A stretch of DNA of 63,421 nt, counting the filler, from Stramenopiles sp. TOSAG23-6 (lineage: Eukaryota): assembly GCA_900128565.1 (NCBI GenBank). It is 17 parts of 17 records of this genome, joined end to end, with 100 filler letters (N's around TTAATTAATTAA, not from the genome) between each part and the next. Parts side by side here need not be neighbours in the genome. Positions count along the whole stretch, not along the records: positions 7,510 to 11,160 come from LT637421.1; 16 more parts are not named here. One strand, written 5' to 3'. The position numbers and the translations under genes were made by a program. Below the pieces are notes generated by a model. It worked only from the letters and a program-made list of their open reading frames with translations, ran no database searches and was not told the DNA's origin. This document shows positions 3,656 through 63,421 of the stretch, one piece after another; the first letter of the stretch is position 1; each line of letters begins with the position of its first letter.

Positions 3656-3757
3656 AGNNNNNNNNNNNNNNNNNNNNNNNNNNNNNNNNNNNNNNNNNNN
3701 NTTAATTAATTAANNNNNNNNNNNNNNNNNNNNNNNNNNNNNNNNNNNNNNNNNNNN

Positions 3758-3809
3758 ACAAAATTTCGTACGAAAAAAAAATCGAATTTGAAAAAAAAAT
3801 AAAACATAC
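3758..3809 (-). other. Family intron, truncated by contig edge
   Basis: GAT|GTATGTTTTA..CAAATTCGA..CGTACGAAATTTTGT on the minus strand. Confidence 0.75.
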
Positions 3810-4539
3810 ATCGCTATCTTCTAAAAACAGTTTTAATTCACTGAGATCTATACCATCCCCATCAGTATCCATTTCTTCAAGTATTTTATACCCATTTCCA
3901 CCATCTTTTTCATATATTTTCATAGCAGTTTTTAATAACAGAATACTATGCATTTTGGAAAAATATTTCAAAAAAAAAATTAAATTTGTTAGGTACAACA
4001 TTTCGTACGAAAAAAAAATCGAATTTGAAAAAAAGCTCTCGAGCATCGAATTCATCTGCAGCTGTATCAGCAATAAGTTTTATTACTAGAATACCACCCG
4101 AAAGCATCATGCATAGGGCAACACGAAGGGTCTTTGGAGTCTCATCTTTCCAAAATTCCATCACCCAAATAAACTTGATAAATTTACCTATTAGAAACAA
4201 TACCCCAGCATAGAAACCAATATCCTTCCATGCTTTTTGTATGAACCAATGCCACATTGCTGCTTTACCTGGACGATGTACATGTTTTGACCATATTAAT
4301 AAATCATTCATTGTAAGAGCACTACCTTCTTCTCGTGGAATTTCATCGTATATTTGCTTTTGTAATGAACGTGAGATACTGACACCACTCTCCGACAATA
4401 ATTGTTCAATCATATTTAACGCCTCAGCTTCACTAATACCGCCCACTTTTCTTTTTAAATCAGTCAAAGCGGGATTTAATGTGTATTGTTTTGATATAGT
4501 GGCAATCGGTGCCACTTTTGCAGACTTAGTATCCGACAT
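3810..4539 (-). CDS. EF-hand-like membrane protein, partial (exons 4539-4045, 3947-3810)
   Basis: Two hydrophobic segments, then EMDTDGDGIDLSELKLFL; exons join in frame across intron 3948-4044. Confidence 0.45.
3948..4044 (-). other. Family intron, putative GC...AT (97 nt)
   Basis: Family core and AAAATGCAT end; GAT|GC donor gives in-frame EFD|SILL; donor is atypical. Confidence 0.5.
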
Positions 4540-4879
4540 GGCGTGAATCGACCCGTCAACGGGTAAATGTGAGTATATAATATTACGTATATTTAGTATC
4601 AAGAAACAGTCAGTTACACTTACTAAAGAATGCAAAGGAAAGTTCTTTGAACCAAAAACCCCCGAAAACAGATAAATTCCCAAATTACCGTAAAAAAACT
4701 CCACGACGACACGAAATCTCAGATTTAATTTTCAATTCAAATGACAAAAAAAAATTAAAAAAATTCATTCCATTTTGTATCATCGATAAATCAAATTGCG
4801 ATGCTTTTCCGACTAATTTACGTCTAATTTACCATAGAGATCATGCACAAATGATCCAACGAACAGAAAACTGAAGATT

Positions 4880-5913
4880 ATGGAGGATAACCAGATATCG
4901 CCAAATAAGCAGGACACTTCAATACATACTTTATATGAGGGGGTTTTACAAAAACTTGGTCAGCGTGGCAAAATGTGGATGAAACGTCAATTTGTGTTGT
5001 TAAGTGACGGTTCTTTTTTTTCTTGCAAAGTTGGCGTAAAACGCTACGATCCTTCAAATGGATCTTCACCAATTAAGTCATTCAATATTTTGAAATGTTT
5101 GATTAACAATAATTCGAATGAATTAAATCAAACGTCAAGCCGAATCGCCACTCGCATATATTCTATCACCATTGTGGCATCAGACGGACGTTGTCTAAAA
5201 CTTGGGTCTCTTGACCCAGCTGTTCTTGAAAAGTGGCTTGAAATATTGCATCTCACAAAGTTTCAGTTACAACAAAAAGAGAAACATAAAAAAATGGAAC
5301 GAATACTGAAGCTTCCAATTGGTCATACTGATGCTCAAGCTTTCCATGTACGTTTTATATAAATTTCTAATTTAATTTTTTTTTCATACGAAATTTCGTA
5401 CCTAACGATTTTTTTTTGTAAATGTTTTTTTTCACAATCCATAGCAAATCATCTGATAGAAAATCAGAGGGTATACATACAACGAACGAAATTTTTCTTT
5501 GGGACGAACAATGGCAAGCATCTCGTGGAACGTCTAGCACATATCCCATTTCAGCATATGATGGTGTACTTGGTTTAGATTCTTCGATTCCTAGTTCTAT
5601 AAGAACTCGCATTTCAAAGTTAAAATTAGAATTTGAAGTACAAAAAAGTTTCGATAAATTCGTATTTCGTGTAGTAGAAAATCTATTTTATAGACCAGGT
5701 AGCGTAAAAATAACACCAGCACCGGAATGGTTTTTGACACGAAATTCACCAATACCTCAGCAAGGTCGTATGTTCTGCGTTGCTGGGATTCCTCTTAATA
5801 TTGCAGTATGTAGTCGACATGCTAAGCAATGTACGTTTTAAAAATTGAATTTCAAATTTATATATTTTTTTCATACGAAATTTCGTACCTAACAATTTTT
5901 TTTTTTTTTTACC

Positions 5914-5944
<31 letters not shown>

Positions 5945-7325
5945 TTTCACGAAACATTAAAGTTAGAGACTCGTGGAATTCGACTTCTTCGCGAAAATTT
6001 ACCTGAAATAGTTCGAGTCCCACTAACGTCACTTGTAAGTTGCTGTGGTATGACTATACTTGCAATGGCACCATTACCGCTGGATAATAATCCTATGCTA
6101 CTTGTTGGTGCTGTTGTGAGCGCACCAACTCCAGATCGAGTATATTTTCATCATGAATTTTTTACCTAATTTTTGTTTCGTACGAAATGTTGTACCTAAC
6201 AAATTTAAGTTTTTTTTTGAATATTTTTCACAATACGAGTGACAATTGTAAAATCAAAATGTATGTTTTATTTTTTTTTTTAAACAAAAAAATCGAATTT
6301 TTTTTCGTACGAAATGTTGTACCTAACAAATTTTAGTTTTTTTTTGAAATATTTTTCCAAACTACATTTCCCTACACTGACTCTGATTTTAAAAAGCATC
6401 TACCGGACACTTTATCTCTTACTTGTAACCCTTATCCAAGGATTCTTGGTATGACGAAGGCCCAACAATTAAAACCAATAATGGGCTCTGATGTAGAATG
6501 GAAACTGGACATAACAGGTACTAATCCAGTTTATACAACAAAGACTGCGAAGTATGGTGATTTATTCATAGAATGGGGAGGCGTAGAAAATCCCTTTTGG
6601 ATTTTTCGATCAGGGGCAATGGTGTATATGTATAATGCGTCGAAGACAATTCAGGATATGATTCATTTTTCCCAAGAGCAAGAACCGACGATGCCAAGTG
6701 ATTGGCTTCCAATAAAGAATAAAATAACAATTTCTGGCGAACTTGGCAAATTAAGTCAATGGGAACCGGAAAAACAATTCAAGTGTTTCATTTTACAAGA
6801 AGAGCGACAAAATTTAACTTTAAAAAAATTTGATTTGGTTCGTTCGGGCTTACCTTTGGTCAATGGAACATATACGAGATATAGACCCGACGACGATGAT
6901 GATAAAGTTATATACGTTCAAGAAACACCTCATAATTTGTACAATATTTTTAAATATGAAGATGATGGAGATTTTAAGGAAGGCATGTGGATTCTTCGAC
7001 ACACTGCTGAGGAAACCGGAAAAGAATATTGGGTTTTTTTCGCTAAAGTAGGAGACAAAGCGGACTGGATAACATCTCAAACGAAATGGTATTCGTATTC
7101 AGATGCTCCATTTGATATACCATCTATGCGCATCGATGGAGTGAAGGTAGCAAAACCAAATTGTTTCATGAATAAAAGTTATTACATTGCACCGGAAATA
7201 CAAGCAAGTTCAGCAATAACAGATGCAACAGAAGGAGAAACTTCATCAGAAATTGTAGGATTTTCTGTCAATGGGCTCAATCATGAATTGAATGGTGAAT
7301 ATGAAAAATCCGCAGAGGAAGATAT
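4880..7325 (+). CDS. PH-domain plus Clu/TIF31-like domain protein, 3' partial (exons 4880-5347, 5443-5830, 5958-6139, 6239-6260, 6368-7325)
   Basis: YEGVLQKLG..WMKRQFVL..EKWLEIL (PH); spliced HAKQLKLETRG..VPLTSLV..ILAMAPLP resembles Clu; all five exons join in frame. Confidence 0.65.
5348..5442 (+). other. Family intron GT...AT (95 nt)
   Basis: TCCAT|GTACGT...CACAATCCAT|AGC; using the AG at 5443-5444 would frameshift into a stop. Confidence 0.85.
5831..5957 (+). other. Family intron GT...AT (127 nt)
   Basis: CAAT|GTACGT...GAAACAT|TA restores the Clu-like frame. Confidence 0.8.
6140..6238 (+). other. Family intron GT...GA (99 nt)
   Basis: TCGA|GTATAT...CACAATACGA|GTG; direct repeat CGAGT; the AG alternative gives an immediate TGA. 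Confidence 0.75.
6261..6367 (+). other. Family intron GT...AT (107 nt)
   Basis: AAAT|GTATGT...ACTACAT|TT joins in frame to ORF 6451. Confidence 0.8.
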
Positions 7326-7409
7326 GTATGTTTTATTTATTTTTTTTTTTTTTGTATGATTTTTTTTTCGTACGGAATTTTGTACCTAACAATTTTAGTT
7401 TTTTTTTTT
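7326..7409 (+). other. Family intron, truncated by contig edge
   Basis: TAT|GTATGTTTTA...CGTACGGAATTTTGTACCTAAC. Confidence 0.75.
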
Positions 7410-7510
7410 NNNNNNNNNNNNNNNNNNNNNNNNNNNNNNNNNNNNNNNNNNNNTTAATTAATTAANNNNNNNNNNNNNNNNNNNNNNNNNNNNNNNNNNN
7501 NNNNNNNNNT

Positions 7511-9653
7511 TGTGGTGGGATTGATATAGCAAATTGGGAAATAGATGATAAAAAAATTCGTAATGTTCGTGTATGTTTTATATGAATTTCTAATTGATTT
7601 TTTTGTTTTGGTTTTCATACGAAATTTCATACCTAACAAATTTAAGTTTTTTTTTTTGAAATATTTTTTCACAATTCGTGCTGGTGTTGAAAGTGCTTTA
7701 AGTTTTGCCAGTTCATATATTGGAATTGGAGGATTTCGTGATCGAAGAAATCATGGCCAATCTCAAGAATATATTCATAATGAAATTAAATATAGGATTT
7801 TAGTATTAAGACCATTTGTCATTATAAATATGAAACGTTTTGATGAAGATAATGATGAAAATGTTGAAAGACAAAAGAATTCTCTTGATACAAAATATCA
7901 AAAACATCAAAAACATCAAAAACATCAAAAACATCAAAAAACAAATGATAATAATTCTGTAAAAAGACAAAATACACCTATACAATATAAAAATCATAAA
8001 CATCAAAAACATCAAAAATTATCTGCAGTGATCACATCTGTACCAAATTTCTTACTTAATGCTTTAGTCGTTCAGTTACGTGATGGTGAAATTTCTTGTG
8101 AAGTTGAAAGTGAATCATTTATTATTGAACCATCTCGTAAAAGTTTTTTGTACTTACTTTTATTACCTAAAGAGAAAAATGAAAACAAAATGCCAATGTG
8201 GTTAAAAAATAATTTTTCTAGACAATTTCGTTGTGTCGAATTCGATTGGACAAATCAAAAAAACCCTAACTCTAAAACAGTAAACCCTAACCCTACAAAT
8301 TCTGAACACTCTACTGTTATTGCAACAGACAATATATCAATACAACAAACTGTACCTACATTGAATATCCATACATCTAACCCTAACCCTAATGATTCTA
8401 TACAGGATGATAAAAAACATAAAAATACTACAGAAAATGAATTTATCAATTTAAATTTTGATCAGTATAAATATATACTAGGTATTGGTGGTATTGGTGG
8501 AACCCTAGACACTCTAGAACAAAATGATACAAAAAATAGTACAAAAATTTCAAAAATGTCTAAAAATATTAAAAAAATGTGGCACAGTACAAGTTTCAAA
8601 GCATTAATAAGTCGACAACGAAGACGGAACCCTAACCCTAACAACTCTTCTTCTACTAAATATTCTACAAAAAATACAAATTTTGATGTGTCAAATGTTA
8701 ATCAATTTCAAAAAACACAAAATTCTCACAATCCTAAAAACCCTAAAAACCCTAAAAACCCTAAAAGAAAAACACAAATTGTATCGCGTTCAAATAGTTT
8801 GAGATTTCGTGATTTCCCAAGACAATTATCAAATACAAATTGTTTGAATTACAACCAAGCAGATAAAAAATCTGTTATTGAAATTTGGAAAATGAACAAT
8901 GTAATTAATGCAGATACATATTATTCATTATATGGATTAGATAATTCATGTTCTTGGGCTGCCGTTGCTCTTGTTCCAGTCATCTCAGAGTATACTATCG
9001 ACAACACGAATTCTAAAAAAAATAGCAACACGAATTCTAAAAAAGATGGACATTCATTTATTCATTTTCCTTATACTGAATGTTGTACTACAATGACAAA
9101 TGAAAAGAATCAAAGTTCTATAATCATTCAAAAAGATACATGTACGTTGATTTTAAAATGTATTTTTAAAATGTATTTTTAAAATGTATTTTTAAAATGT
9201 ATTTTTGTTTATTTTTGTGTCTAATTTGTATTTTTGAAATGCATTATTCAATAATTGTAGTATATATTCCATTTCATAAGTAAATTCTATACCTAACAAA
9301 ATATGTTTTTTTAAAATGACATATTTTTCCAAAATACATGTACACCTATCCATCGAAATTCAACAAAACTTCTAAAGAAAATATCTGCTGTCAAATCTAT
9401 TATGAAACTTTTGGATCATCACCAGAGAAAAAATAGTCACAAACCTGCTCGTGGAGAACAACGTGTGAAAAAAGTGATTTCTATACAGCGAATTAATACA
9501 AGAGACAGTTTTGTATCAACAAGTGAAAATGAATTAATTGAAGACACTAACCCTAACCCTATTGATTCAATTGGAAAATCAATAAATATAAACGACACTC
9601 CTACGTGGGCAAAAACGTTACGACATCGTTGGAACGAACCTGAAAACCTCTAA
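7511..9653 (+). CDS. Hypothetical low-complexity protein, 5' partial (exons 7511-7570, 7680-9141, 9340-9653)
   Basis: Exons join in frame; KHQ, NPK and NPNP repeats; no domain recognised. Confidence 0.55.
7571..7679 (+). other. Family intron GT...GT (109 nt)
   Basis: TTCGT|GTATGT...CACAATTCGT|GCT; direct repeat TTCGTG; in-frame RNVR|AGVE. Confidence 0.75.
9142..9339 (+). other. Family intron GT...AT (198 nt, with internal TTTTAAAATGTAT repeats)
   Basis: ATACAT|GTAC at both junctions; joins in frame to ORF 9402. Confidence 0.8.
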
Positions 9654-11260: not shown

Positions 11261-11350
11261 ATATTTCAAAAAAAAAAACTTAAATTTGTTAGGTACAAAA
11301 TTTCGTACGAAAAAATAAATAAATTCGAAATTAAAAAAAATAAAACATAC
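11261..11350 (-). other. Family intron, truncated by contig edge
   Basis: AAT|GTATGT...GTACCTAAC...GAAATAT. Confidence 0.75.
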
Positions 11351-13096
11351 ATTGAGGATTCATCCTCCTGTTGTGTAGAGACAGAAGAAGGAAGATTCAT
11401 CTCTGAATTGATCATACATTTCATACCAAATTGTGGTACTAATGATGAATTTATTTGTTTCATTTTTTCACACCAAAACGAATGAATTTTGGAAAAGTAT
11501 TTCAAAAAAAAATTTGTTAGGTAAAAAATTTCGTACGAAAAAAAATTGGAATTTGAAAAAAAATAAAACATACATACCATTCCATCGGAAGTAAATACCA
11601 TACTGTACCTACTTTCGTAAAGCTTGATTTATTCATTATACTTTGGATGGGTTTAAAATATTGTAAGCGACATATATTGTGAAAAAATATTTCAAAAATT
11701 TGATTTTTTTTGTTAGGTACGAAATTTCGTACAAAAAAATAAATAAATTTGAAATTCATGATGAAAACGTACATAACGACGACAGAAAACTACTAGACCA
11801 ATCATTCATAACTCTACGAATATCATTAATACCTGGCCACTGCTCTAGTGTCAATACTAAATGCATGATCCCTTGATTTACTACATCAGTTCCATGAATC
11901 ATATGCAATTTCTTGATTAATTTTTGATAATTATTTGTATTTTGATTTTCTTTATTATGTATTCCCTTCAAAACATTAGCAATAGGAATCATAAGTCGAC
12001 CTCTTTCCCTAGCTACAGTTGCACAGAATTTCCTTGCATTGTCTTTGCTATGCAAGAAATCAAAAATTATTACCTCAAAAAGATGTTCGAATATAGACCA
12101 ATATTCTTTGTTTGGATCTATTGTGACACATTTTCGAAGCATACTCGCAAACGTAAGAGCTCCTGAAGTTGCAGACGCTGATGCTGATCCAATTTGTTTT
12201 GGGTTAGGGTTTTGCTCTTTTTTAGAGACATTTTCATCTAACAATACAAAAGAATCCTCTGCTATCACTGGAGAGATCAAACGTCCAGCCCAACACCAAG
12301 CCCAGTCTATTGCAATATAAGAAAGTTGTACACTACACTCATAGTTCACTGTATCAGAGGGTTCTAGTTTTAGACAGAGAGGGAACTCTGAGGTTATTTT
12401 TGCAATTACTTCTTTTGATTTCCATTTATGGTAAGGAAATTTCGGAGATTTTCGACACAAAGAGAAACCTGTGGATATATCATCTATTAAACGATGTCGC
12501 ACAAATGACCAGAGTATGGGTGCAACAGAAAGACATTCCATGTTGAAATTATTAATAGTTGGTGCAGGCTTTGTGCCTATACCAATCTTCTCAGTTTGAT
12601 TCTCTGAGGTGTTTGATAGTTTATTCACTATCGAAGATTTTAGACGAAGGATTAGTAACAAGCATTCCAAACGAAGAGGAACATCCTCTTCTATTGTACG
12701 ACTACCCCGACATATGGATTTAGGCACCAGAGTACGCAACTGATCAGTTCCGAAATGTATGAAGAACTCAGTAGGGGAAATTGTTGCAGATTTCTGGAGC
12801 ACTCGCTTACCGAGCATATGTGCATATGGTCGAACACCCTGATTACCATCAGCATTACGAGTAGGTGATGGCCTTTTACCCGAGGTTACATTGCTGGTAT
12901 CACTATCATCAGCAGCGTCATCATATTCACAACTACTCTTACTTTCATTTTCAGTACACCAAGCAACTGCCGAACTAAGGAGCACCGGTTCAATTAGTTG
13001 TGACGACGTGCAACGACTCAGAAAAAGGTCAACAAGATGTTCTACAACATTCGGCTCATGCGAAGAGCGCAACAATCCTTCAAAAATTTTGTCCAT
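11351..13096 (-). CDS. Protein with DUSP-like motif, 3' partial (exons 13096-11773, 11671-11574, 11481-11351)
   Basis: Spliced GTVWYLLPMEWY|SFWCEK resembles DUSP (WYLV..W...W); exons in frame. Confidence 0.5.
11482..11573 (-). other. Family intron GT...AT (92 nt)
   Basis: GTAT|GTATGT...CCAAAATTCAT|TCG; in frame. Confidence 0.8.
11672..11772 (-). other. Family intron GT...AT (101 nt)
   Basis: TTAT|GTACGT...CACAATATAT|GT; direct repeat TATGT; in frame. Confidence 0.8.
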
Positions 13097-13614: not shown

Positions 13615-14698
13615 ATGAAAACACGTATAAATCAGTTGATCCTCGAAAATGAAGTGAAAAGTAAAAAGATTAAACAACTGTTAACCATTGAGTCCAGCTT
13701 CAAAACAGCAAAGGTGACGAATACCACCAAAATAGAAATACTTCGTGGAAAAATGCGAAGACTTCTTCGTGAACAAGAAGCAAAGAATTCTCTTCTAAAG
13801 GTATTAATCGCTCGATATGGAAAAAAACTAAAGCGATGTCGGACGTCACTGAAAAAAAAATCAGAAGGGAAAAAAAGGAAGTCTAGTTGCAAAAAAAACC
13901 CATCTAAAGATAAAAGTAAATGCAATATTGTCGTAGTCGGTGAAGTTGAAATAAATTTGCGCGATAAAATAAAAGAGCTTTTGAATGAGAAATCTAAAAG
14001 ACTCGAGCGTCTCAATGAGTTAGAGAAGAAATTACTCGTAGCAAAAAAAACTGACGCATCAACCATCTCTACGACTCACTCTCCACAGCGTGAAACAAAT
14101 TCAAAAAAAGAGCAATGGAAAAAATTACAAAAACATCCAATATTTGGTCGGTATTTTAGAATGCTTAAAATGGGAATTCCTTTGAATTCGGTAAAACAAA
14201 AAATGATTCTTGACGGATTGAATAAAGAAATGATTCCCATGTTGGATGATCCTGAGTCATGTACGTTTTATTTTTTTTTCAAATTCGAAGTTTTTTTTTC
14301 GTACGAAATTTTGTACCTAACGATTTTTTTAATTAAAAAAAAAAATATTTTTCCAAAATACATGGTTTGGGCCTTCTGGAACGATCTCACCTCTTCATTA
14401 TGATCCATATCATAATCTATTATGCCAAGTTGTTGGTTACAAATATATTCGTTTAATTGATAGTCGATACACACACAAATTATATAGAAGAGATCCCCCA
14501 CGGCATAATAATTCTAAAATTGATCTTGATAAATATGAAATTTCAAATTTTCCAGATTTTGAAAATACACCAATGACACATTGCCTTCTTGGACCTGGTG
14601 AAATGCTATATATACCACGTCACTGTTGGCATTATGTGAGATCTGTCACTGGTTCATTTAGTGTCAGTTATTGGTGGGGAGGAGAAAAGGATTTATAA
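13615..14698 (+). CDS. Coiled-coil plus CCDC53/formin-type motif joined to the C-terminal part of a JMJD5/KDM8-like JmjC domain (exons 13615-14260, 14364-14698; possibly chimeric)
   Basis: RYFRMLKMGIP..VKQKM..DGL motif; second exon WFGPSGTISPLHYDPYHNLLCQVVGYKYIRL..LGPGEMLYIP..WHYVRS. Confidence 0.6.
14261..14363 (+). other. Family intron GT...AT (103 nt)
   Basis: TCAT|GTACGT...AAAATACAT|GG; T+GG rebuilds the conserved Trp of WFGP. Confidence 0.8.
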
Positions 14699-15008
14699 AG
14701 AAAATAACATTGAGTATCTTAATTATTTTTTTTAATATTTTGGATAATTACTACGAAAATAATTATAATTTCTATAAAGAGTGTAATAAAATATAAATAT
14801 TTTATTTTTTGTAAGGTATTTTTTTATATTCAGAAATTAAAAATATGAGACAAATATTTCAATTTGTTGTCTTCTTCAAACACTCTTTTTTATGTGAACT
14901 CTTCCAATNNNNNNNNNNNNNNNNNNNNNNNNNNNNNNNNNNNNNNNNNNNNTTAATTAATTAANNNNNNNNNNNNNNNNNNNNNNNNNNNNNNNNNNNN
15001 NNNNNNNN

Positions 15009-15055
<47 letters not shown>

Positions 15056-15080
15056 ACTGGTTCGATCCCGGTTCGCGGCG
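15009..15080 (+). tRNA. tRNA-Phe(GAA), first base lost in the gap
   Basis: TAGCTCAGTTGGGAGAGC D arm, TCAGA-CTGAAGA-TCTGA anticodon arm, GGTTCGATCC T loop. Confidence 0.95.
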
Positions 15081-15485
15081 TTTCGACGAAATTTTTTTTT
15101 GAAAGTTTTTTTTGTTCATATATAATTAAGAGTTTTTGTGAAGAGTTTTTTTTTAAATGACTTTTTTTTTTAAATTAATTTTTAAAGATGCTCTAAAACT
15201 CAATTTGCGTTTGATAATAATAAAACAAGTTTGATAATAATAAAATAAGTTTGATAATTTGATAATAATGATAATAATGATAATAAGTTGGAAGAGTTTT
15301 CGTGACATTGTGTTTGTGTTAAATATATATTTTAAATATATATATATACAATAGCTAATGATAGTACAATGTTATATTTTATTCAAATCACACATTTGTG
15401 TTTCATTGCATTGTTTAACTTTAACTTAGAAAAAAAAAGTCATCAATTTCTATTTTGTTCTGCTTTAACCCAATTGTAAAAGTCA

Positions 15486-16199
15486 TCAATTTCTATTTTG
15501 TTCTGCTCTAACCCAATTGTAAAATTCTGGGTCTTCTTCATGACTAGTCTTTATATCTATCAAATTCTGAATATTGTCTTTACCATTTTGTTGTTGATTT
15601 GAATATTCATTTAACAGTTTGGAAAATTTATCTGATTTAATAACACACATTTTATCTGATTGGGGTTTTATACGGCCAAGGAAACATGTATTTTGGAAAA
15701 ATATTTGAAAAAAATCTTTAAGTACAAAATTTCGTACGAAAAAAAAATCGAATTTGAAAAAAAAATAAAACATACAGCATTTAGCAAAAGACGTTGCAAA
15801 AGTTTTTGACTCACGCAAAAATTCATGTTTCATGTAGAAATATTTCGAGCAATATGCTTTGATTGAAGTTTTAATTTCATATTCTTGTCCATATTTTAGT
15901 TCTCTGATATATCTACTTTGTATACTAGCTACTACAGCTGAACTAGGTCCAATAGATGTCGTGTCTCTTCGATTCTTTAGAATTAGTTCAAAGGCAGAGA
16001 TTTTTACAAGGTAGTCCCAACGTGCTTGTTCAGCTGCTTCTAAATATCGTGCATTATTCATGTGACCAAACATGTCTATATCAAAAAAACGCACTTTGAA
16101 TAAACGTGTAGTGCTCTCAAGTGGTGATATTTTTCGCTGCCAAAGGGCACGCAGTGTAGTCATAACAGTGCGACCATAATATGAGAAAATATATCCCAT
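15486..16199 (-). CDS. Hot-dog fold thioesterase, THEM6/4HBT-like (exons 16199-15776, 15685-15486)
   Basis: DIDMFGHMNNARYL motif; RYIRELKYGQ. Confidence 0.85.
   Translation of the reverse strand: MGYIFSYYGRTVMTTLRALWQRKISPLESTTRLFKVRFFDIDMFGHMNNARYLEAAEQARWDYLVKISAFELILKNRRDTTSIGPSSAVVASIQSRYIRELKYGQEYEIKTSIKAYCSKYFYMKHEFLRESKTFATSFAKCCMFYFFFKFDFFFVRNFVLKDFFQIFFQNTCFLGRIKPQSDKMCVIKSDKFSKLLNEYSNQQQNGKDNIQNLIDIKTSHEEDPEFYNWVRAEQNRN
15686..15775 (-). other. Family intron GT...AT (90 nt, in frame and stop-free)
   Basis: TGCT|GTATGT...AAAATACAT|GT; moving both boundaries 2 nt upstream creates TGA, so this copy fixes the register. Confidence 0.8.
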
Positions 16200-16575: not shown

Positions 16576-17223
16576 ATGTCAGAGTCTAAAACTGCATCCC
16601 CCATGGCAAAACTTTTGTTAATGAAGCAATTAAAAGAGTTGAGTTCAGATCCTCCTGAGGGTGTTGAAGTTTGGTTAGAGGATGATGCTGACTTGTTCAA
16701 GTGGAGTTGCAGGTATGTTACAATGTTTAAGTTCACCGTGTCTCCCGTTTTTTCGTCAACATATTTTTCATACTCTAAAACATTATATATATATATATAT
16801 TCTTACTTGTATACAATATTAACATGTATATTAAACACGTACAGTATTATTGGTCCACCTGGTACACCTTATGAGGGTGGAATATTTACTTGTTTGCTTG
16901 AATTCCCGCCAGATTTCCCAAATATGCCTCCAAAAATGATTTTTCAGACCAACATTTGGCACCCAAATATCTACAGTGACGGAAGAGTATGTATTAGCAT
17001 ATTACACCCACCAGGAACAGACTCGCATAATCCTGAGGAGCTTGCAGAAGAACGCTGGCGTCCAATTCTTGGTGTAGAAGCTATCCTAGTATCTGTAATA
17101 TCTATGCTTGCTGACCCAAATGATAATTCGCCAGCCAACATAGATGCAGCTGTTCAGTGGAGAAAGGATCGTGCTGGATATAATAAAGAAGTCAAAAAGT
17201 GCGTTGAAAAATCATTATGTTGA
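16576..17223 (+). CDS. Ubiquitin-conjugating enzyme E2, Ubc7/UBE2G/Cdc34-like (exons 16576-16712, 16845-17223)
   Basis: GPPGTPYEGG, HPNIYSDGRVCISILH, acidic loop insertion, SPANIDAA. Confidence 0.95.
   Translation: MSESKTASPMAKLLLMKQLKELSSDPPEGVEVWLEDDADLFKWSCRYVTMFKFTVSPVFSSTYFSYSKTLYIYIYSYLYTILTCILNTYSIIGPPGTPYEGGIFTCLLEFPPDFPNMPPKMIFQTNIWHPNIYSDGRVCISILHPPGTDSHNPEELAEERWRPILGVEAILVSVISMLADPNDNSPANIDAAVQWRKDRAGYNKEVKKCVEKSLC
16713..16844 (+). other. Canonical GT-AG intron (132 nt), not of the family
   Basis: AG|GTATGT...TACAG|T; removal gives WSCSIIGPP as expected for an E2. Confidence 0.9.
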
Positions 17224-17533: not shown

Positions 17534-18652
17534 TCAGCGTTTAACAAGTCGACCATACTTTTCTTTCCCCTTTTTACCTCGGCGTTGTATTCTTACTTCA
17601 TCAGGTGCTACTTCTTCTTCTTCGCTATCAGAGTACTTCACAGCAATGTCTCCATCATCACAAATCTCAATAACAGTTGCACGTATTGTGAAAAAATATT
17701 TCAAAAAAAAATCGTTAGGTACGAAATTCCGTATGAAAAAATTAAGTTAGAAATTCATATAAAACATACATGCACGCATCTCTGCTTCTTGTCTTTTGTG
17801 ATGAGAGTTTCTCATATTTTTTAAACTAACTTTCATTAAAGTCTGGTGCACAGCAGTTCTATTTGCTTCATTTTCTCTCACATTTGCCAATTTTAATTCC
17901 ATATTTTTCTCCTCCAACTTAATCATATAGCATTCCCACTTATTCCACACACGCCATTTCTCTGTACGAATCCTTCTACTTACATAAAAAAACATAACCA
18001 AAAGAGCCCCTCGTAATTCTAATTGGGATAGTGTCAGACCCATAGCCTCTGCTAACTTTGTAGCTTTTTGTAGCTGTTGTTGGTGTTTCTCCTTCATTGT
18101 ACCCACTCTAAGTTGAAAAAGACTCTCTTGCTCTGCTAAAATTCGAGATGTGTTTTCCTTATATTTTTGTTCTTGGAATTCCAACTGTTTTAAATATTCT
18201 TTTTTATTGTTCATAAAACCACGTGCATTCTTCTCTTTTTGAAGCTGAAAACGTTCTTTCCATATTGCAGATTTCATTGTGTCATATTTACCGAGAATAT
18301 TTTCAGATTGAAAGTCACTAACGACACTATTATGAGGATTATGAGGTAACGCAGTAGGATTTTGTTGAGATGCAGTATGATTTTGTTGAGATGCAGTATG
18401 AATTTGATGAGATGCAGTGTGTTTTTGTTGAGATGCAGTGTGCTTTTGATAAGATGCAGTGTGCATTTGATGTAATTTCATGTGCCTTTTTTGATGAAAG
18501 GGAATGGGTTTGGGTTTTAATGACTTGCCTTCTCCTTCCGAATCTTTCTCTCTCCTCCAACCACGTGCACCATAATCTTTCCAATGCGACGTGTGTGAAG
18601 GTATAGGTTCCGGTGGAGGTGAAGGTATTGGCGATGTTGATGCTGGTGACAT
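17534..18652 (-). CDS. Coiled-coil hypothetical protein with 21-nt repeats (exons 18652-17774, 17680-17534)
   Basis: Long ORF with HTASQQK repeats; last exon ATVIEICDDGDIAVKYSD is Tudor-like. Confidence 0.5.
17681..17773 (-). other. Family intron GC...GT (93 nt)
   Basis: CGT|GCATGTATGT...CACAATACGT|GCA; 6-nt direct repeat CGTGCA; the GC donor, not the GT 4 nt downstream, keeps the frame. Confidence 0.6.
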
Positions 18653-18945: not shown

Positions 18946-19017
18946 TTCTTGTTAGTTTAATGGATAGAATTAGCGACTCCGGATCGCTGGATCCGGGTTC
19001 GACTCCCGGGCAGGACT
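18946..19017 (+). tRNA. tRNA-Arg(CCG)
   Basis: AGCGA-CTCCGGA-TCGCT anticodon arm; CCGGG-TTCGACT-CCCGG T arm; T:C mismatch at the first acceptor pair. Confidence 0.85.
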
Positions 19018-48629: not shown

Positions 48630-50810
48630 AATGTCGGTGATAATGGACGGGAAAGTAATTCTTCTCTGAACTTTAACTCTAAATTATGAGAACTTTCAAT
48701 AGTTCTGTTTGTATTTTTTATAAACTCTTCCTGTAATTTTAGAAATACATCATCCTCATTTTTATTTGAATCGTCGACGCTTTCAATTGGTAACAACGGT
48801 AAACTTTTTCGAGCAGATTTCCAAGAGTTAATGATATCATTGTATATATCATCCAAATTCATTTTTTCAAGAACTGTCTTGCGGGTAATTTTTGATGTTA
48901 ATCCTAACGACACCTCTTCAAACTTTTCGAATAGTTTTACATCAGGTTTTGTTAGTTTTCCTGCGATATGAAGTTCAGGGAAATTATTCATATTAAGTTC
49001 TACAAATTGGGATATTGTGAATGGTGGAATAAATTTTTTATCATATCCTTTATCCCATTCGTAATCTTTACCGCTAATTAAATGAGACCCAGGAAATTGA
49101 ACATGAGGGTAGTGTTGAATTTCATTATACCACCATGAGTATGTCATCATCGGCTGATGTAGGATTGTCAAGTCTGTTCTAAATCCTTCACAAAGTGTCA
49201 AGTAGCGGAGAACTGTCCATTGTAAGTCGTAAGTAGTTATTAGAAGGGAACCCTGAGGAATATGCGAAACAAGAGCTTTTCCATATTCTTCAATATAATG
49301 AGCATTGCTCATATCTTGCTCTGGGTACCAGTAGTCTGTTTGGTATTTAATCATGTATGCACCGACTCCAGCAATGATGAAGAGATAGAAGTACCAAATT
49401 TTGATTTTCAAAGATTCCTTCGATATCCATGAAGATAAGCTAAATTTGCACAGAATATATTCAATTCTACAAACGTCAAAAAGTACATGAAGCCAAGCTG
49501 AAGCTCCGACCCCAAATGTAATGAAGATAATAACATTTGGTTGCATCCAAAATCTCATATGAACGCCAAACAACAACCCTTGGGACAGTGGGATATTAGA
49601 TAATGTATGGAAAATTATCAAGTAAAATGCCCAGGTGAATAATAGAATTTGTCCAATGGAATTTTGTGCTTTTGATAATTGTTTTTTTTGGGTGCTTTTA
49701 GATTCCCCTTTACGACCCCTGTCACGTAGTAATGTTTTTATTGAAGTGATTCTTTTTGAAACTACTTTTTTCCTATTAATATATGGACTATGAGGGATTT
49801 CTCCCATACCAAACTGCCACATAACCTTGAAACCTACAAAGATAAAAGGAATACACAATGGTGAAGGCAACTCTCGTGTAAATAGATCAGAGAAATAATT
49901 AAATAACCTCTCCATTAAACCTGCGACCTTTTCATTTGCACGATTTCCAGAATATAACTGAAGCGTTCCATAATCAGCACGGCGGAAATGATGGAAAAAA
50001 CCACACGTATTGAGAAAAAATATTTTTTTTGTAAAATTTGTTAGGTACGAAATTTCGTAGGAAAAAAAATAAATTCGAAATTCATAATGAAAACGTACTT
50101 ATTGTTCCCGTATTTCCCCAACTAGATGGATTAGGAAAATATTTTTCAGCGACTATTAGATATAAGTATGGAGTTAAACCAAGAAGATAGTAACCAGCTA
50201 GTCGCCAAAACAAAGCTTTAGTAAGTACCCGTTGATGAAACAAAATCCAAAGAAACCAGGAAATTAAAGGTATCTGAAACAGTACTGTTGTATGTTGGTT
50301 ACACATTGCCAAACCACAACAAAATGAACCAAAAATAGCAACATTCGGATCATTTTTCTTTGAAAATAAACATGTAAGATAGACAATCAAGGCTGCAAAA
50401 AAATTATTCATTGCAAACACTTCACTTGATATTGCGTACAACCAGACAAGTGGGGATATTGAATAGAGAATACCAGCCAGGGCGGCGACGACAATATTAC
50501 CTCGTCTTGTATCACGGGTTAATAAATCAACACTTAGGAATACAAAAACACCAGCTAATGAGGCAAAACAACATGACATCATATTTGATCGCCACGCTGG
50601 AGTACCACCTAACCATTCCATTCGCTTTGTAGCTATGTTGGATAACAATATAAATAGTGGATATCCTGGAGGATGAGCAACACCAAGGCTACATGACTCT
50701 GCAACTAATTCACCACTATCACCTCCAGCAACAGTCGGATACACTGTCTGTATGTATATTGACATTGGTATTGCAAACACAAGTGCAGAAACTGTTAGTA
50801 AAAGCATCAT
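48630..50810 (-). CDS. TMEM260: TMEM260/DUF2723 protein O-mannosyltransferase-like, 3' partial (exons 50810-50099, 50004-48630)
   Basis: GGDSGEL..GVAHPPGYPLF, EVFAMNN, CNQHT, spliced WGNTGTI|SGFFHHFRRADYGTLQL, RFWMQ. Confidence 0.92.
50005..50098 (-). other. Family intron GT...GT (94 nt)
   Basis: ATAA|GTACGT...CTCAATACGT|GT; restores the WG(x6)GF spacing of TMEM260. Confidence 0.85.
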
Positions 50811-54227: not shown

Positions 54228-54311
54228 GCAGTTGTACCAAAGCCTGGTTAATGGGTCAGACTTGAAATCTGATGGGCTATGCCCTCGCAGGTTCGAATCC
54301 TGTCAACTGCG
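54228..54311 (+). tRNA. tRNA-Ser(TGA)
   Basis: GCAGTTG/CAACTGC acceptor, TCAGA-CTTGAAA-TCTGA anticodon arm, long variable arm, GGTTCGAATCC. Confidence 0.95.
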
Positions 54312-56925: not shown

Positions 56926-57254
56926 TANTAAAAATATCTATTCAAAAGTGATCAAACATACACACTATTGATTCTATAGTAGACACTTGATAGTATATAG
57001 GATCAATTGTAGTCCTAACAATCTAAATCTACGCAAAAGATTATCCTTGAATCTACGTTTATTTATTTTATATTATTACTTTTTCGAGGAGGAGCGCCAA
57101 ATTTAATTGCGAATGATCGATGTCAAATTAAGTTTTAAAAATTCCGTACCAAATTTCGTACCTAACGAATTTGTGATGGAATTTCTATCAGCAAAAAGTT
57201 CCAAATTTCCTAACCCTAGAACGAACGCGAATTCTAATATATAACTTATCAAAT

Positions 57255-59700: not shown

Positions 59701-59921
59701 NNNNNNNNNNNNNNNNNNNNNNNNNNNNNNNNNNNNNNNNNNNNTTAATTAATTAANNNNNNNNNNNNNNNNNNNNNNNNNNNNNNNNNNNNNNNNNNNN
59801 ATAAACAATACAATCCTGTGTAAATAATGACCGTAAAAATACGATGCTCAAGAAGAAATGAAAAAAATGATCTCATCTGAGGAGCGATATATAGGGTACC
59901 GGGTATCGGATTTTAAAAAAT

Positions 59922-61208
59922 TTATTTTTTTTTATTTTCAGTTTTCTTCATTTTTAGAACCCGCATACTTTTCTTGATACATTTTTTCCTCCACTTTGAA
60001 TAAGTCAGTGGCTTACCATCAATATTGCGCGTTCTAGCTTTTCCATCTAATCCAACGAAGAAAGCAAGACTGTGCCGAGGTTTTACTACGTCAATTTCGG
60101 CCAAAGAGGTGGAACTTGGCAAATTCGAAATTGAATCTGTACTGAAGTTCATACCTAACGAATGTCCATTTTTCAGAGAGTTACTCGCCCCAATATTTGC
60201 CACAACCCGATGTAATGTCGACTGTAATCTTCCCAGTGTAAAGTCGGATAAGCAGTCACCAACATTGATAATAAATTTCGCTTCTCCAGCTGTCGCTATA
60301 GAGTTAGGGTTAGGGTTAAGTTTCTCGAAAACTTCACCAGGACAACAAGCATCCACCCAAGTGTTATTTGAAGTGTCCTTAATTTGAAGCTTCCCCGTAT
60401 TACCATCATCGTAACATAAAATAGTAATGACTCCTACATCAGTATGTGCAGCTATTAGAGTATTGCTTTCTGGATTTTTTGAACATTTTAGATATCCGTT
60501 CATTGTTAAAATTGATGTACCTTCCGATTGTTCAAAAAAGTCAACACCTTTTGGTTGTTCCGTTTCAGTATCAATACATGGGAACATATCGAAATCTCTA
60601 GAGATCAACTCCCATGAATCATTAGAAGCATTAGTACAGTTTTTCAAATTATCCTTTGACGATAATGCATCTTTATATCCTATTGCAATGGCACATAACA
60701 ACTTAGAACTAAGTGACGTCATCGCCTTATAATAACTATCGACACTAGTTTTGAAGTCCTTGGATTGTCTTTCGGTAAATCCAGATACACCTGGGCATGT
60801 TGTTGGTGGCCACATATTGGCTTGCAAAAGCTCACTTTTTGTATTTTTTGTATTTTTTGTATTCTCCTTTGAAGCAGAGCTTGAAGGACCAAAACGGTAC
60901 TTTTCAACAACATCATTTTCTGCAATATTACCTACTAAAGAAGCAAAGTTTTCAGTTTTAGAAGGACAGTATCCACGACGAGCACGGTCCCTAGCAACAC
61001 ACCGAGATTTATATTCTTCAGGAAGAGCAAAAAAACTGGAAGCGGCCTGAAGCGTGTTTTTCACTGTTGGTGTAGGTACACCGGTACCACTTACTATAAC
61101 AAAGCCATCCTCTGATAAAGCTAACCACAGATTCCGTGCACAACTATTGCGGTCGTCTTCGCTGTAATCTCCTGGAAAAGCAAACGCACGAATGTTCACC
61201 AAACGCAT
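59922..61208 (-). CDS. 2OG-Fe(II) oxygenase, IPNS/DIOX-like
   Basis: GF..VSGTGV..FFALPEEYK..RGY, HTD.G.ITIL, INVGD..STLHRV, RHSLAFF. Confidence 0.92.
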   Translation of the reverse strand: MRLVNIRAFAFPGDYSEDDRNSCARNLWLALSEDGFVIVSGTGVPTPTVKNTLQAASSFFALPEEYKSRCVARDRARRGYCPSKTENFASLVGNIAENDVVEKYRFGPSSSASKENTKNTKNTKSELLQANMWPPTTCPGVSGFTERQSKDFKTSVDSYYKAMTSLSSKLLCAIAIGYKDALSSKDNLKNCTNASNDSWELISRDFDMFPCIDTETEQPKGVDFFEQSEGTSILTMNGYLKCSKNPESNTLIAAHTDVGVITILCYDDGNTGKLQIKDTSNNTWVDACCPGEVFEKLNPNPNSIATAGEAKFIINVGDCLSDFTLGRLQSTLHRVVANIGASNSLKNGHSLGMNFSTDSISNLPSSTSLAEIDVVKPRHSLAFFVGLDGKARTRNIDGKPLTYSKWRKKCIKKSMRVLKMKKTENKKK

Positions 61209-63337: not shown

Positions 63338-63421
63338 ATGTATTTTGGAAAAATATTTCAAAAAAACGTTAGGTACAAAATTTCGTACTAAAAATAAATT
63401 CGAAATTGAAAAAAAATAAAA

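Follow-up and report, generated by a model that had tools for sequence, protein, structure and literature searches.

How can an intron be removed when it ends without AG, and why would its last bases repeat the end of the exon before it? These questions are raised by an intron of 109 nucleotides (nt) (7571..7679, plus strand) in contig LT637421.1 of the Stramenopiles sp. TOSAG23-6 assembly GCA_900128565.1. The window analysed, the whole stretch of 63,421 bases, is made up of 17 contigs of about 3.65 kb each, arranged with the longest first and joined by spacers of the form N44-TTAATTAATTAA-N44 (3658-3757, 7410-7509 and so on to 59701-59800). The intron has the donor GTATGT (7571-7576), the motif TACCTAACA (7630-7638) and a T-run (7647-7657), followed by the 3' module GAAATATTTTTTCACAAT (7658-7675) and the last bases TCGT (7676-7679), with no AG. 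Its removal keeps the frame of the upstream exon, which reads ...KKIRNVR| and ends in TTCGT (7566-7570); the same five bases close the intron (7675-7679) and a G follows both. A first-pass annotation of the window had proposed that a mobile element carrying its own donor and branch point uses duplicated target bases as its 3' end, and the current analysis follows up that proposal.

The focal intron belongs to a repeated intron family found on both strands of the window, with a unit of about 90-130 nt. The unit starts with GTATGTTTTAT or GTACGTTTTCAT (GTAYGTTTT) followed by AT-rich filler, has in its middle the palindrome TTTCGTACGAAA, then TTTTG-TACCTAAC, which is similar to a branch site, and a T-run, and closes with a 3' module made up of GAAATATTTTT and CCAAAAT or CACAAT, after which come four nucleotides, mostly ACAT. 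In 62 kb, 24 complete copies have been curated, 14 of the CACAAT type (the focal intron among them) and 10 of the CCAAAAT type, together with more than 10 partial copies. All the 24 complete copies lie between open reading frames (ORFs) of the same strand and are in sense orientation to them. The donor positions are highly conserved (G1 22/24, T2 24/24, G5 23/24, T6 24/24), and the family donor GTAYGT is the same as the donor of an ordinary intron in a ubiquitin-conjugating enzyme (E2) gene of the same genome. The existence of an element with its own donor and a branch-like motif, as claimed at first pass, is borne out by this repeated and sense-oriented family. The distance from the A of the branch motif to the intron end varies between 32 and 64 nt (median 42), and the cut would therefore follow the 3' module and not the distance from the branch.

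The core TACCTAACA with at most one mismatch occurs 49 times in the window against 14.6 expected, and an nhmmer profile built from a seed of 13 copies gives 100 matches at E<=10, of which 16 span from position 1-5 to position 105 or beyond of the 108-position model. Mean pairwise identity among the copies is 74%, the nearest neighbours sharing 71-93%. The genes bearing copies include those of SNF2, BRO1, ProRS, TMEM260-like, thioesterase, HMG-box and PH proteins. In one seawater DNA run 5,921 contigs match a single 3.65-kb piece of the window, 1,999 of them at two places, which demonstrates many distinct copies but does not give their number. At least 10 of the 34 contig ends are located within a family copy; the repeat therefore fragments the assembly. 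A search of public collections with the core pattern has identified one metagenome locus (L001) of the same layout in another collection, and no locus in the viral and the prokaryote-genome collections.

The ends of the introns have been set from the family alignment only, as the G at position 1 of GTAYGT and the fourth base after the anchor CA[AC]AAT, the junction repeat not being used. So defined, the 24 copies begin with GT in 22 cases and end in AT (18), GT (3), TT (2) or GA (1), and never in AG (0/24); five more copies with only a 3' part all end in AT. In 18 of the 24, the stretch from the branch motif to the 3' end is free of AG. AG acceptors as a general rule have been rejected, as a joint at the first AG past the branch motif would give an open, continuous frame in only 6 of 23 cases, about the chance level.

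The frame test, in which the longest upstream and downstream ORFs are joined after the aligned segment is cut out, finds the frame kept in 17 of 22 rows, one of them (26134) being uninformative, with one in three expected by chance. The copies at 6140 and 6261 are out of frame singly and jointly in frame through an exon of 22 nt between them; a single large intron 6140-6367 in place of the two and the small exon is out of frame. By reading, the frame is also kept for the copies at 35977, 50098 and 42540, and the copy at 41375 is uninformative. The copy at 27820 needs 2 nt less to be removed and that at 17769 needs 4 nt more, in each case the register of its own repeat (ACAT and CGTGCA, respectively). 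This conservation of frame argues for a 3' boundary set at a constant distance within the element, irrespective of the final dinucleotide (AT, GT, GA or TT), in agreement with the earlier claim that no AG is needed.

Two conserved domains interrupted by copies bear on the position of the joints. In the SNF2 ATPase gene exon 1 ends in ...LKDYQ and exon 2, (C)SGVNW..., starts one residue before the residue aligned to G135 of yeast ISW1; the junction YQ-CS-GVNW fits what we take to be the spacing YQxxGVNW of SNF2 ATPases. The intron concerned (36515..36802, plus strand) is a composite of 288 nt with three branch motifs and the repeat AAT|GT, and it ends in GAAAAT|GT, 5 nt beyond an AG that would be unused if the SNF2 motif spacing holds. 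In the BRO1 domain gene, exon 1 corresponds to positions 1-256 of the profile and exon 2 to positions 259-287 (E 0.15 alone).

Junction repeats have been counted on the same 24 copies, leaving out the composite +36515 with its 3' end set by homology, -42540 (divergent 5' end), the 5'-truncated -3995, -32950 (3' end not found), L001 (other source) and the copies cut by contig ends. The nine matches pointed out at first pass are all found again, namely TTCGT|G (7571), TCCAT (5348), CGA|GT (6140), TAT|GT (11772), CGTGCA (17769-73), ACAT|G (22938), AAT|GT (36515), TT (41874) and ATACAT|GTAC (9142). The same is true of the five mismatches (15775, 41628, 33497, 50098 and 35977) and of the predominance of AT at the upstream exon ends, seen in 16 of the 24 complete copies and in 7/7 copies with the 5' part only.

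When compared with shuffled pairs, a check that the first-pass annotation had proposed for the whole genome and that is made here on the 24 copies, the summed suffix identity between exon ends and intron ends is 57 against 41.5 +/- 3.7 (reached by 28 of 200,000 shuffles), and 79 against 61.8 +/- 4.2 (26 of 200,000) when the prefix identity between intron start and next exon is included. Identity of at least 2 nt is present in 17/24 copies (shuffled 12.25 +/- 1.24; 130 of 100,000), of at least 3 nt in 10/24 (shuffled mean 6.2) and of at least 4 nt in 5/24 (shuffled mean 2.4). The CACAAT subfamily holds the whole of the excess (31 against 18.35 +/- 3.0; 48 of 100,000), and it is for this subfamily only that the expected excess stands. 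Within it, position -2 alone is above the shuffles (10/14 against 6.4; 329 of 20,000), positions -1 and -4 leaning in the same direction. The locus-specific signal amounts to about 2 nt in one subfamily only. The idea of a target duplication thus appears right in kind, the duplication being shorter than the examples chosen at first pass had suggested. Identity is below 2 nt in 7 of the 24 copies.

The rare end dinucleotides are equal to those of their own exon ends in three of six cases, GA (6140), GT (7571) and TT (41874), and unlike them in the other three, TT (35977), GT (50098) and, when the aligned register is used, GT (17769). The three equal cases fit bases derived from the target. ACAT closes 13/24 introns against 4/24 exons, so that the element itself would supply the greater part of the 3' end, and the idea of duplicated target bases forming the 3' end does not extend to the bulk of it. 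The restored site over the 24 copies reads c13 A19 T20 | g13, with a background of 16% for C and G, and forms the palindrome CATG centred on AT. The length of the repeat ranges from 0 to 10 nt, the copy at 17769 needing 6 nt and that at 9142 having 10.

The explanation that we favour, at a probability of roughly 0.55, is an introner that supplies its donor and branch site itself, is cut at the 3' side at a constant distance within the element and is flanked by a short duplication of the target. On this view a small, non-autonomous mobile element would have spread as an intron into many genes, each copy bringing with it the donor GTAYGT, the branch-like TACCTAAC, a long T-run and the conserved 3' module. 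The exons would be joined 4 nt after CA[AC]AAT, a point 2 nt beyond the ATAC in which the 5' GTAT is mirrored, and since the position of the join is the same whatever the last two bases, no AG would be used. The last two bases, and sometimes more, would be the target duplicate, usually AT at a palindromic cAT|g site. A cut of the form GT...AT would take out the element and one duplicate, and would therefore restore the original message.

The same logic accommodates the two copies that begin with A. In the one at 25536 (25434..25536, minus strand) the repeat ACAT|A takes in the first intron base, and the one at 27820 (27820..27938, plus strand) needs a shifted register, its frame requiring removal of 117 nt and not 119, with ATATGT...ATAC and an ACAT repeat as a way of writing it. 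At less than even odds, we also consider that the second step of the major spliceosome may take place at a position fixed by the element (2 nt past ATAC, 32-64 nt after the branch) and independently of AG, at very many sites beside GT-AG introns, which would let a transposon with a 2-nt duplication become a seamless intron.

A number of observations weigh against the introner explanation. The CCAAAAT subfamily has no excess of identity (26 against 25.9); its copies end in ACAT in 9 of 10 cases and so are uninformative on duplication, and their AT...AT could equally be a duplication, a part of a 9-nt inverted repeat or a preference of the splice signal. By hand count the non-consensus 3' bases match the own exon at only 7 of 15 positions, and in 7/24 copies the final dinucleotide is unlike that of the exon. 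The 6-nt repeat at 17769 and the 10-nt repeat at 9142 are unlike the fixed-length duplication of one transposase. With an average identity of 74% among the copies, decay could blur any original duplication. The inverted repeat in the family consensus is 4 nt long, the terminal GTAT/ATAC being complementary in 81% of cells and free of covariation; a terminal inverted repeat of 9 nt (89%) is present in one of three CCAAAAT copies tested and in none of three CACAAT copies tested. No transposase, integrase or reverse-transcriptase domain is found in any of the 43 ORFs of the window. The direct repeat in itself makes the register ambiguous, 17/24 copies being writable as AT...AC. It is from sequence that we infer removal from the transcript and its exact register, and the proposed case is built from 24 copies, one frame test and one junction fixed by homology.

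It is conceivable, though in our view unlikely, that there is no target duplication, and that an element extending from GT to ...ACAT was inserted or retained after exon ends suited to splicing (AT|), the longer matches being due to chance, mutation and boundary shifts. The last four bases ACAT in 13/24 copies whatever the exon, the zero excess of the CCAAAAT subfamily and the limitation of individually raised positions to -2 are all in keeping with this, and the ordinary E2 intron has CAG|...CAG| identity by consensus alone; according to excerpts of PMC9860276, matches across all introns cannot part duplication from site preference. The suffix identity of the CACAAT copies, reached by 48 of 100,000 shuffles only, speaks for a duplication, as do the three rare end dinucleotides identical to their own exon ends and the copies at 17769 and 27820, in frame only in the register of their own repeats. 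Spread by a route through RNA or DNA repair and not by a transposase, for example by reverse splicing or by the uptake of intron copies or circles into staggered breaks through microhomology, is in our view improbable; it would leave direct repeats that vary in length. The variable length of the repeats (0 to 10 nt), most of which are substrings of the joined ends ...ATACAT|GTAYG (for example at 9142), the 5'-truncated copy (-3995), the sense-only orientation of the complete copies (24/24) and the frequency of two-unit telomere-type inserts would suit such a route; inserts of this type are a mark of break repair, and new introns of Daphnia reportedly have short flanking repeats. However, TTCGT and CGA, which are non-consensus on both sides, require target bases to be copied into the intron end, unlike what reverse splicing does, and antisense core fragments in ORFs point to insertion at the DNA level in both orientations.

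The mode of removal has been considered along with the mode of spread. Removal by a minor (U12-like) spliceosome, a type tolerant of ends other than AG, or by a pathway of euglenid type in which the intron ends pair, is rather less probable still. The motif TACCTAAC resembles what we take to be the U12 branch consensus; U12 introns have the 5' splice site RTATCCTT and a branch site 10-26 nt from the 3' end, and the present family has at its 5' end GTAYGT and not RTATCC (+5 G in 23/24, +6 T in 24/24), with its branch motif 32-64 nt from the 3' end, outside that range. The donor is moreover that of the ordinary E2 intron, and RNAalifold on 20 copies gives 0 consensus pairs at 0 kcal/mol, with no pairing that joins the intron ends. 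Non-AG ends with short border repeats are described for introns of euglenids, hemistasiid diplonemids and Amoebophrya in the available excerpts of PMC12621601, PMC6221363 and PMC7789003, but the Euglena signature N3CDG...CH'GN5-6|R, as given in the excerpted text of PMC12501133, is not that of the family, which has YGT at +4 to +6 and CA[AC]AATACAT at its 3' end. That the copies are not precisely removed, and represent damaged genes or an artefact of a fragmentary single-cell assembly, appears very improbable. The assembly is indeed fragmentary and contains ambiguous bases, the aligned ends put two copies out of frame and no RNA contig spliced across a copy is found among the matches listed; on the other hand, the frame is kept in 17/22 rows against an expected one in three, the element and its loci are present in independent seawater DNA contigs and the element also in the metagenome contig L001, and copies lie in conserved genes (SNF2, BRO1, ProRS and TMEM260-like).

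Matches to RNA contigs have been listed from four runs for 3758-7409, and among them none joins across a copy, which gives no verdict on splicing. One RNA contig (run X11) has a match that starts at 6366, two bases short of where the intron 6261-6367 is predicted to end, preceded by 127 unlike letters that are absent from the window; it is a weak hint of splicing. Joints from 3798-3812 to 3947-3985 connect element ends of other loci and have not been used as evidence. DNA and RNA runs both show very high read depth over parts of the element; such depth represents neither copy number nor expression, and nothing has been concluded from it. Protein collections searched for a spliced product gave no match at E<=1e-20 for the HMG-box exon and only a read-through model for ProRS; solved structures gave only weak, irrelevant matches for the upstream SNF2 exon, and the second exon of the thioesterase gene alone gave no match to 4HBT_2.

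Antisense core fragments that cover model positions of about 40-82, and neither end, have been identified at 42216-42296, 60131-60173, 22658-22698 and 57142-57175 (all on the plus strand). Three of the four lie inside open ORFs and are translated as SLGTEFST, HSLGMNFST and IRYKIWYK-like sequences; one is located in an ORF for a 2OG-Fe(II) oxygenase, directly after the matched part of the domain. Telomere-type runs of two units (CCCTAACCCTAA, with at most one mismatch) number 20 in the window against 0.08 expected and are present at 8264-8641, 12198, 22575-22751, 23956, 36963, 42027, 44456, 56438, 60304 and other positions. They are mostly found inside ORFs with CCCTAA on the sense strand, where they read NPNP(N), and are possibly in-frame micro-insertions left as scars of break repair.

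Several known systems resemble the family in part. Miniature inverted-repeat transposable elements (MITEs) of the Tc1/mariner type have a palindromic TA target and a 2-bp duplication. The family is similar to them in its palindromic target, its putative 2-nt duplication and the short inverted ends flanked by it, and differs in having AT in cATg and not TA (16/24 exon ends, 18/24 intron ends) and in inverted repeats that are far shorter. A MITE origin is reported to have been proposed for many non-canonical introns of Fritillaria. The introns of Fritillaria borealis, which has a divergent U2AF, show in excerpts of PMC13326754 that 3' ends without AG can be processed as a matter of routine by a U2-type spliceosome; both ends are non-canonical in 95% of the introns there, whereas in the present family the 5' end is canonical and GT-AG introns coexist.

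Some introners are known to carry one splice site and to take the other from the target duplication (PMC9860276, in excerpt). From the same excerpts, introners of the Chrysochromulina type are like the family in being short, non-autonomous, present in many genes, sense-oriented and provided with their own donor, in having bases at the 3' boundary that repeat the exon end, and, as proposed for the family, in that excision of the element with one duplicate restores the message; they have AG ends and duplications of 3-9 bp, whereas here AG is found in 0/24, the locus-specific stretch is about 2 nt and the 3' end is mostly borne by the element. The introner elements of Amoebophrya, in the excerpts of PMC7789003, share with the family a repeated nature, non-canonical borders, direct repeats over the boundaries and a marine protist host. 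The same excerpts describe inverted repeats of 8-20 nt that form hairpins, direct repeats of 3-5 nt, high variability of both borders and no detected U1; the family is unlike this in its canonical donor, inverted repeats of 4-9 nt, direct repeats of mostly 2-3 nt and lack of a consensus fold. Introns of euglenids and of hemistasiid and eupelagonemid diplonemids likewise do not follow the GT-AG rule, have short border repeats and are suspected to be of MITE origin, and in the excerpted accounts (PMC12501133, PMC12621601, PMC6221363) they have no U1-type donor, pair their ends in the manner of CAG/CTG and are possibly excised as circles; the family differs from them in having GTAYGT and a branch motif and in lacking their signature.

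Since non-AG families flanked by repeats are known in Amoebophrya, euglenids and diplonemids, and Fritillaria, the family is not a new kind of intron. It differs from them in that it combines a canonical donor and branch site with a uniform non-AG (AT) end, occurs beside GT-AG introns and is hosted by a stramenopile. No description of it has been found in the literature on introners and MAST, where supplements of introner surveys may list relatives; the single-cell stramenopile paper mentions introns only twice, in its methods (PMC5778133). Bursts of intron gain are at present best explained by introners, and the families surveyed so far were found through annotated GY-AG introns. A uniform family with a textbook donor and branch motif and an AT end offers a natural experiment on the choice of the 3' splice site, and would show that AG need not limit which transposons become introns. 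Gene models of this uncultured lineage miss the family introns, as exemplified by a ProRS coding sequence (CDS) that reads into the intron. Missed introns and broken assemblies would therefore affect protein catalogues and abundance estimates drawn from such genomes.

Individual copies of the plus strand show considerable variation around the common layout. The CACAAT-type copy 5348..5442 has the repeat TCCAT, and 5831..5957 is a CACGAA variant with an AT repeat. The copy 6140..6238 ends in ACGA with the repeat CGA|GT and is followed by the micro-exon of 22 nt (6239-6260; VTIVKSK and 1 nt), which is required for the frame, and by 6261..6367, a CCAAAC variant. The long copy 9142..9339 has the 10-nt repeat ATACAT|GTAC, and a 13-nt tandem repeat near its 5' end consists of four units (TTTTAAAATGTAT) at 9150-9205. 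A CCAAAAT-type copy with CAT|G is located at 14261..14363. The copy 35977..36088 ends in ACTT after an exon end GAT, and a second candidate repeat, GTGAT|G, lies 9 nt downstream and is in frame too. The copy 36228..36337 has a GTTTGT donor and a CAT repeat, and 40790..40904 is the copy within the BRO1 domain gene. In the composite SNF2 intron (36515-36802) three family units follow in series, the second ending in ACGT at 36703 and the third starting with GTATTTC at 36704, so that one copy seems to have been inserted exactly at the boundary of another.

On the minus strand, the copy 50005..50098 in the TMEM260-like gene has the exon end AA and the intron end GT and shares only GT|GT, and the copy 42391..42540, with the divergent donor GTAGGT and a T|GT repeat, is in frame by hand reading and stands outside the counts. 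The copy 41753..41874 ends in ATTT after the exon end CTT, with a TT repeat. CT is set against AT in 41496..41628 and in the thioesterase gene copy 15686..15775. The composite 41209..41375 holds a CCCTAA run and its downstream frame is uninformative; the copy 33375..33497 follows an exon end CAG| and shares only GTA downstream, and 26023..26134 lies 5 nt from a contig end. The CCAAAAT-type copy 23516..23606 carries the 9-nt terminal inverted repeat ATGTATGTT/AAAATACAT, 89% complementary and inclusive of the flanking AT. The repeat ACAT|G is found in 22840..22938 and TAT|GT in 11672..11772, which ends in ATAT, and 11482..11573 ends in TCAT. The copy 17681..17769 has the CGTGCA repeat, with the left flank GTGCAT and the right flank GTGCAA around GTAT...ATAC, and keeps the frame only when 93 nt are removed in the register of that repeat. 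A 5'-truncated copy without GTATGTTTTA is present at 3949..4030. Copies cut by contig ends include those at 3758-3809, 7326-7409, 11262-11350, 22502-22548, 26240-26292, 33561-33613, 33718-33769, 37264-37343 and 63339-63421; a further one, of which the 5' part is left, follows the ProRS ORF (29812..29877, plus strand).

The contigs of the window have a GC content of 21-38%, and their ORFs are eukaryotic, including a kinase, an SNF2 ATPase, BRO1, ProRS, E2, BolA, HMG-box and ankyrin repeat proteins. Sequencing runs that match stretches of the window are small DNA libraries of one organism and seawater metagenomes. In database searches the ProRS ORF is closest to a CDS labelled EukProt GSMAST32.ASY1.ANO1.1775.1 (94% identity, full coverage), which continues into the intron at 29812 as far as the end of the contig; the model therefore comes from the same or a near-identical assembly. 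From the EukProt label the host, a marine protist with an AT-rich genome, is probably of the MAST-3 type among the stramenopiles; a diplonemid host, also considered, was discarded on account of this label. The public ProRS CDS (P0001, compared with 28462-29925), besides continuing into the intron up to the contig end, drops 24 residues of true coding sequence (VEAHKLQMPLLLSSELWKKTGRWE) as a false intron.

Ordinary GT-AG introns exist in the same genome, as exemplified by the E2 gene (16715..16845, plus strand; CAG|GTATGT...TACAG|T). An Rfam scan of the window gave no small nuclear RNA or other Rfam family besides three tRNAs, Phe-GAA (15007-15081), Arg-CCG (18946-19017) and Ser-TGA (54228-54311). 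One contig (42604-44793) has 30 isolated N bases and a sequence quality below that of the rest. The region 393-2099 is a single gene of three overlapping ORFs with a C2 domain at the end, in which the frame changes at 1148-1190 and 1551-1606 without a family copy; these changes are due either to introns of very small size (about 26 nt, GTAAAA...TAAAG) or to assembly errors in the form of indels.

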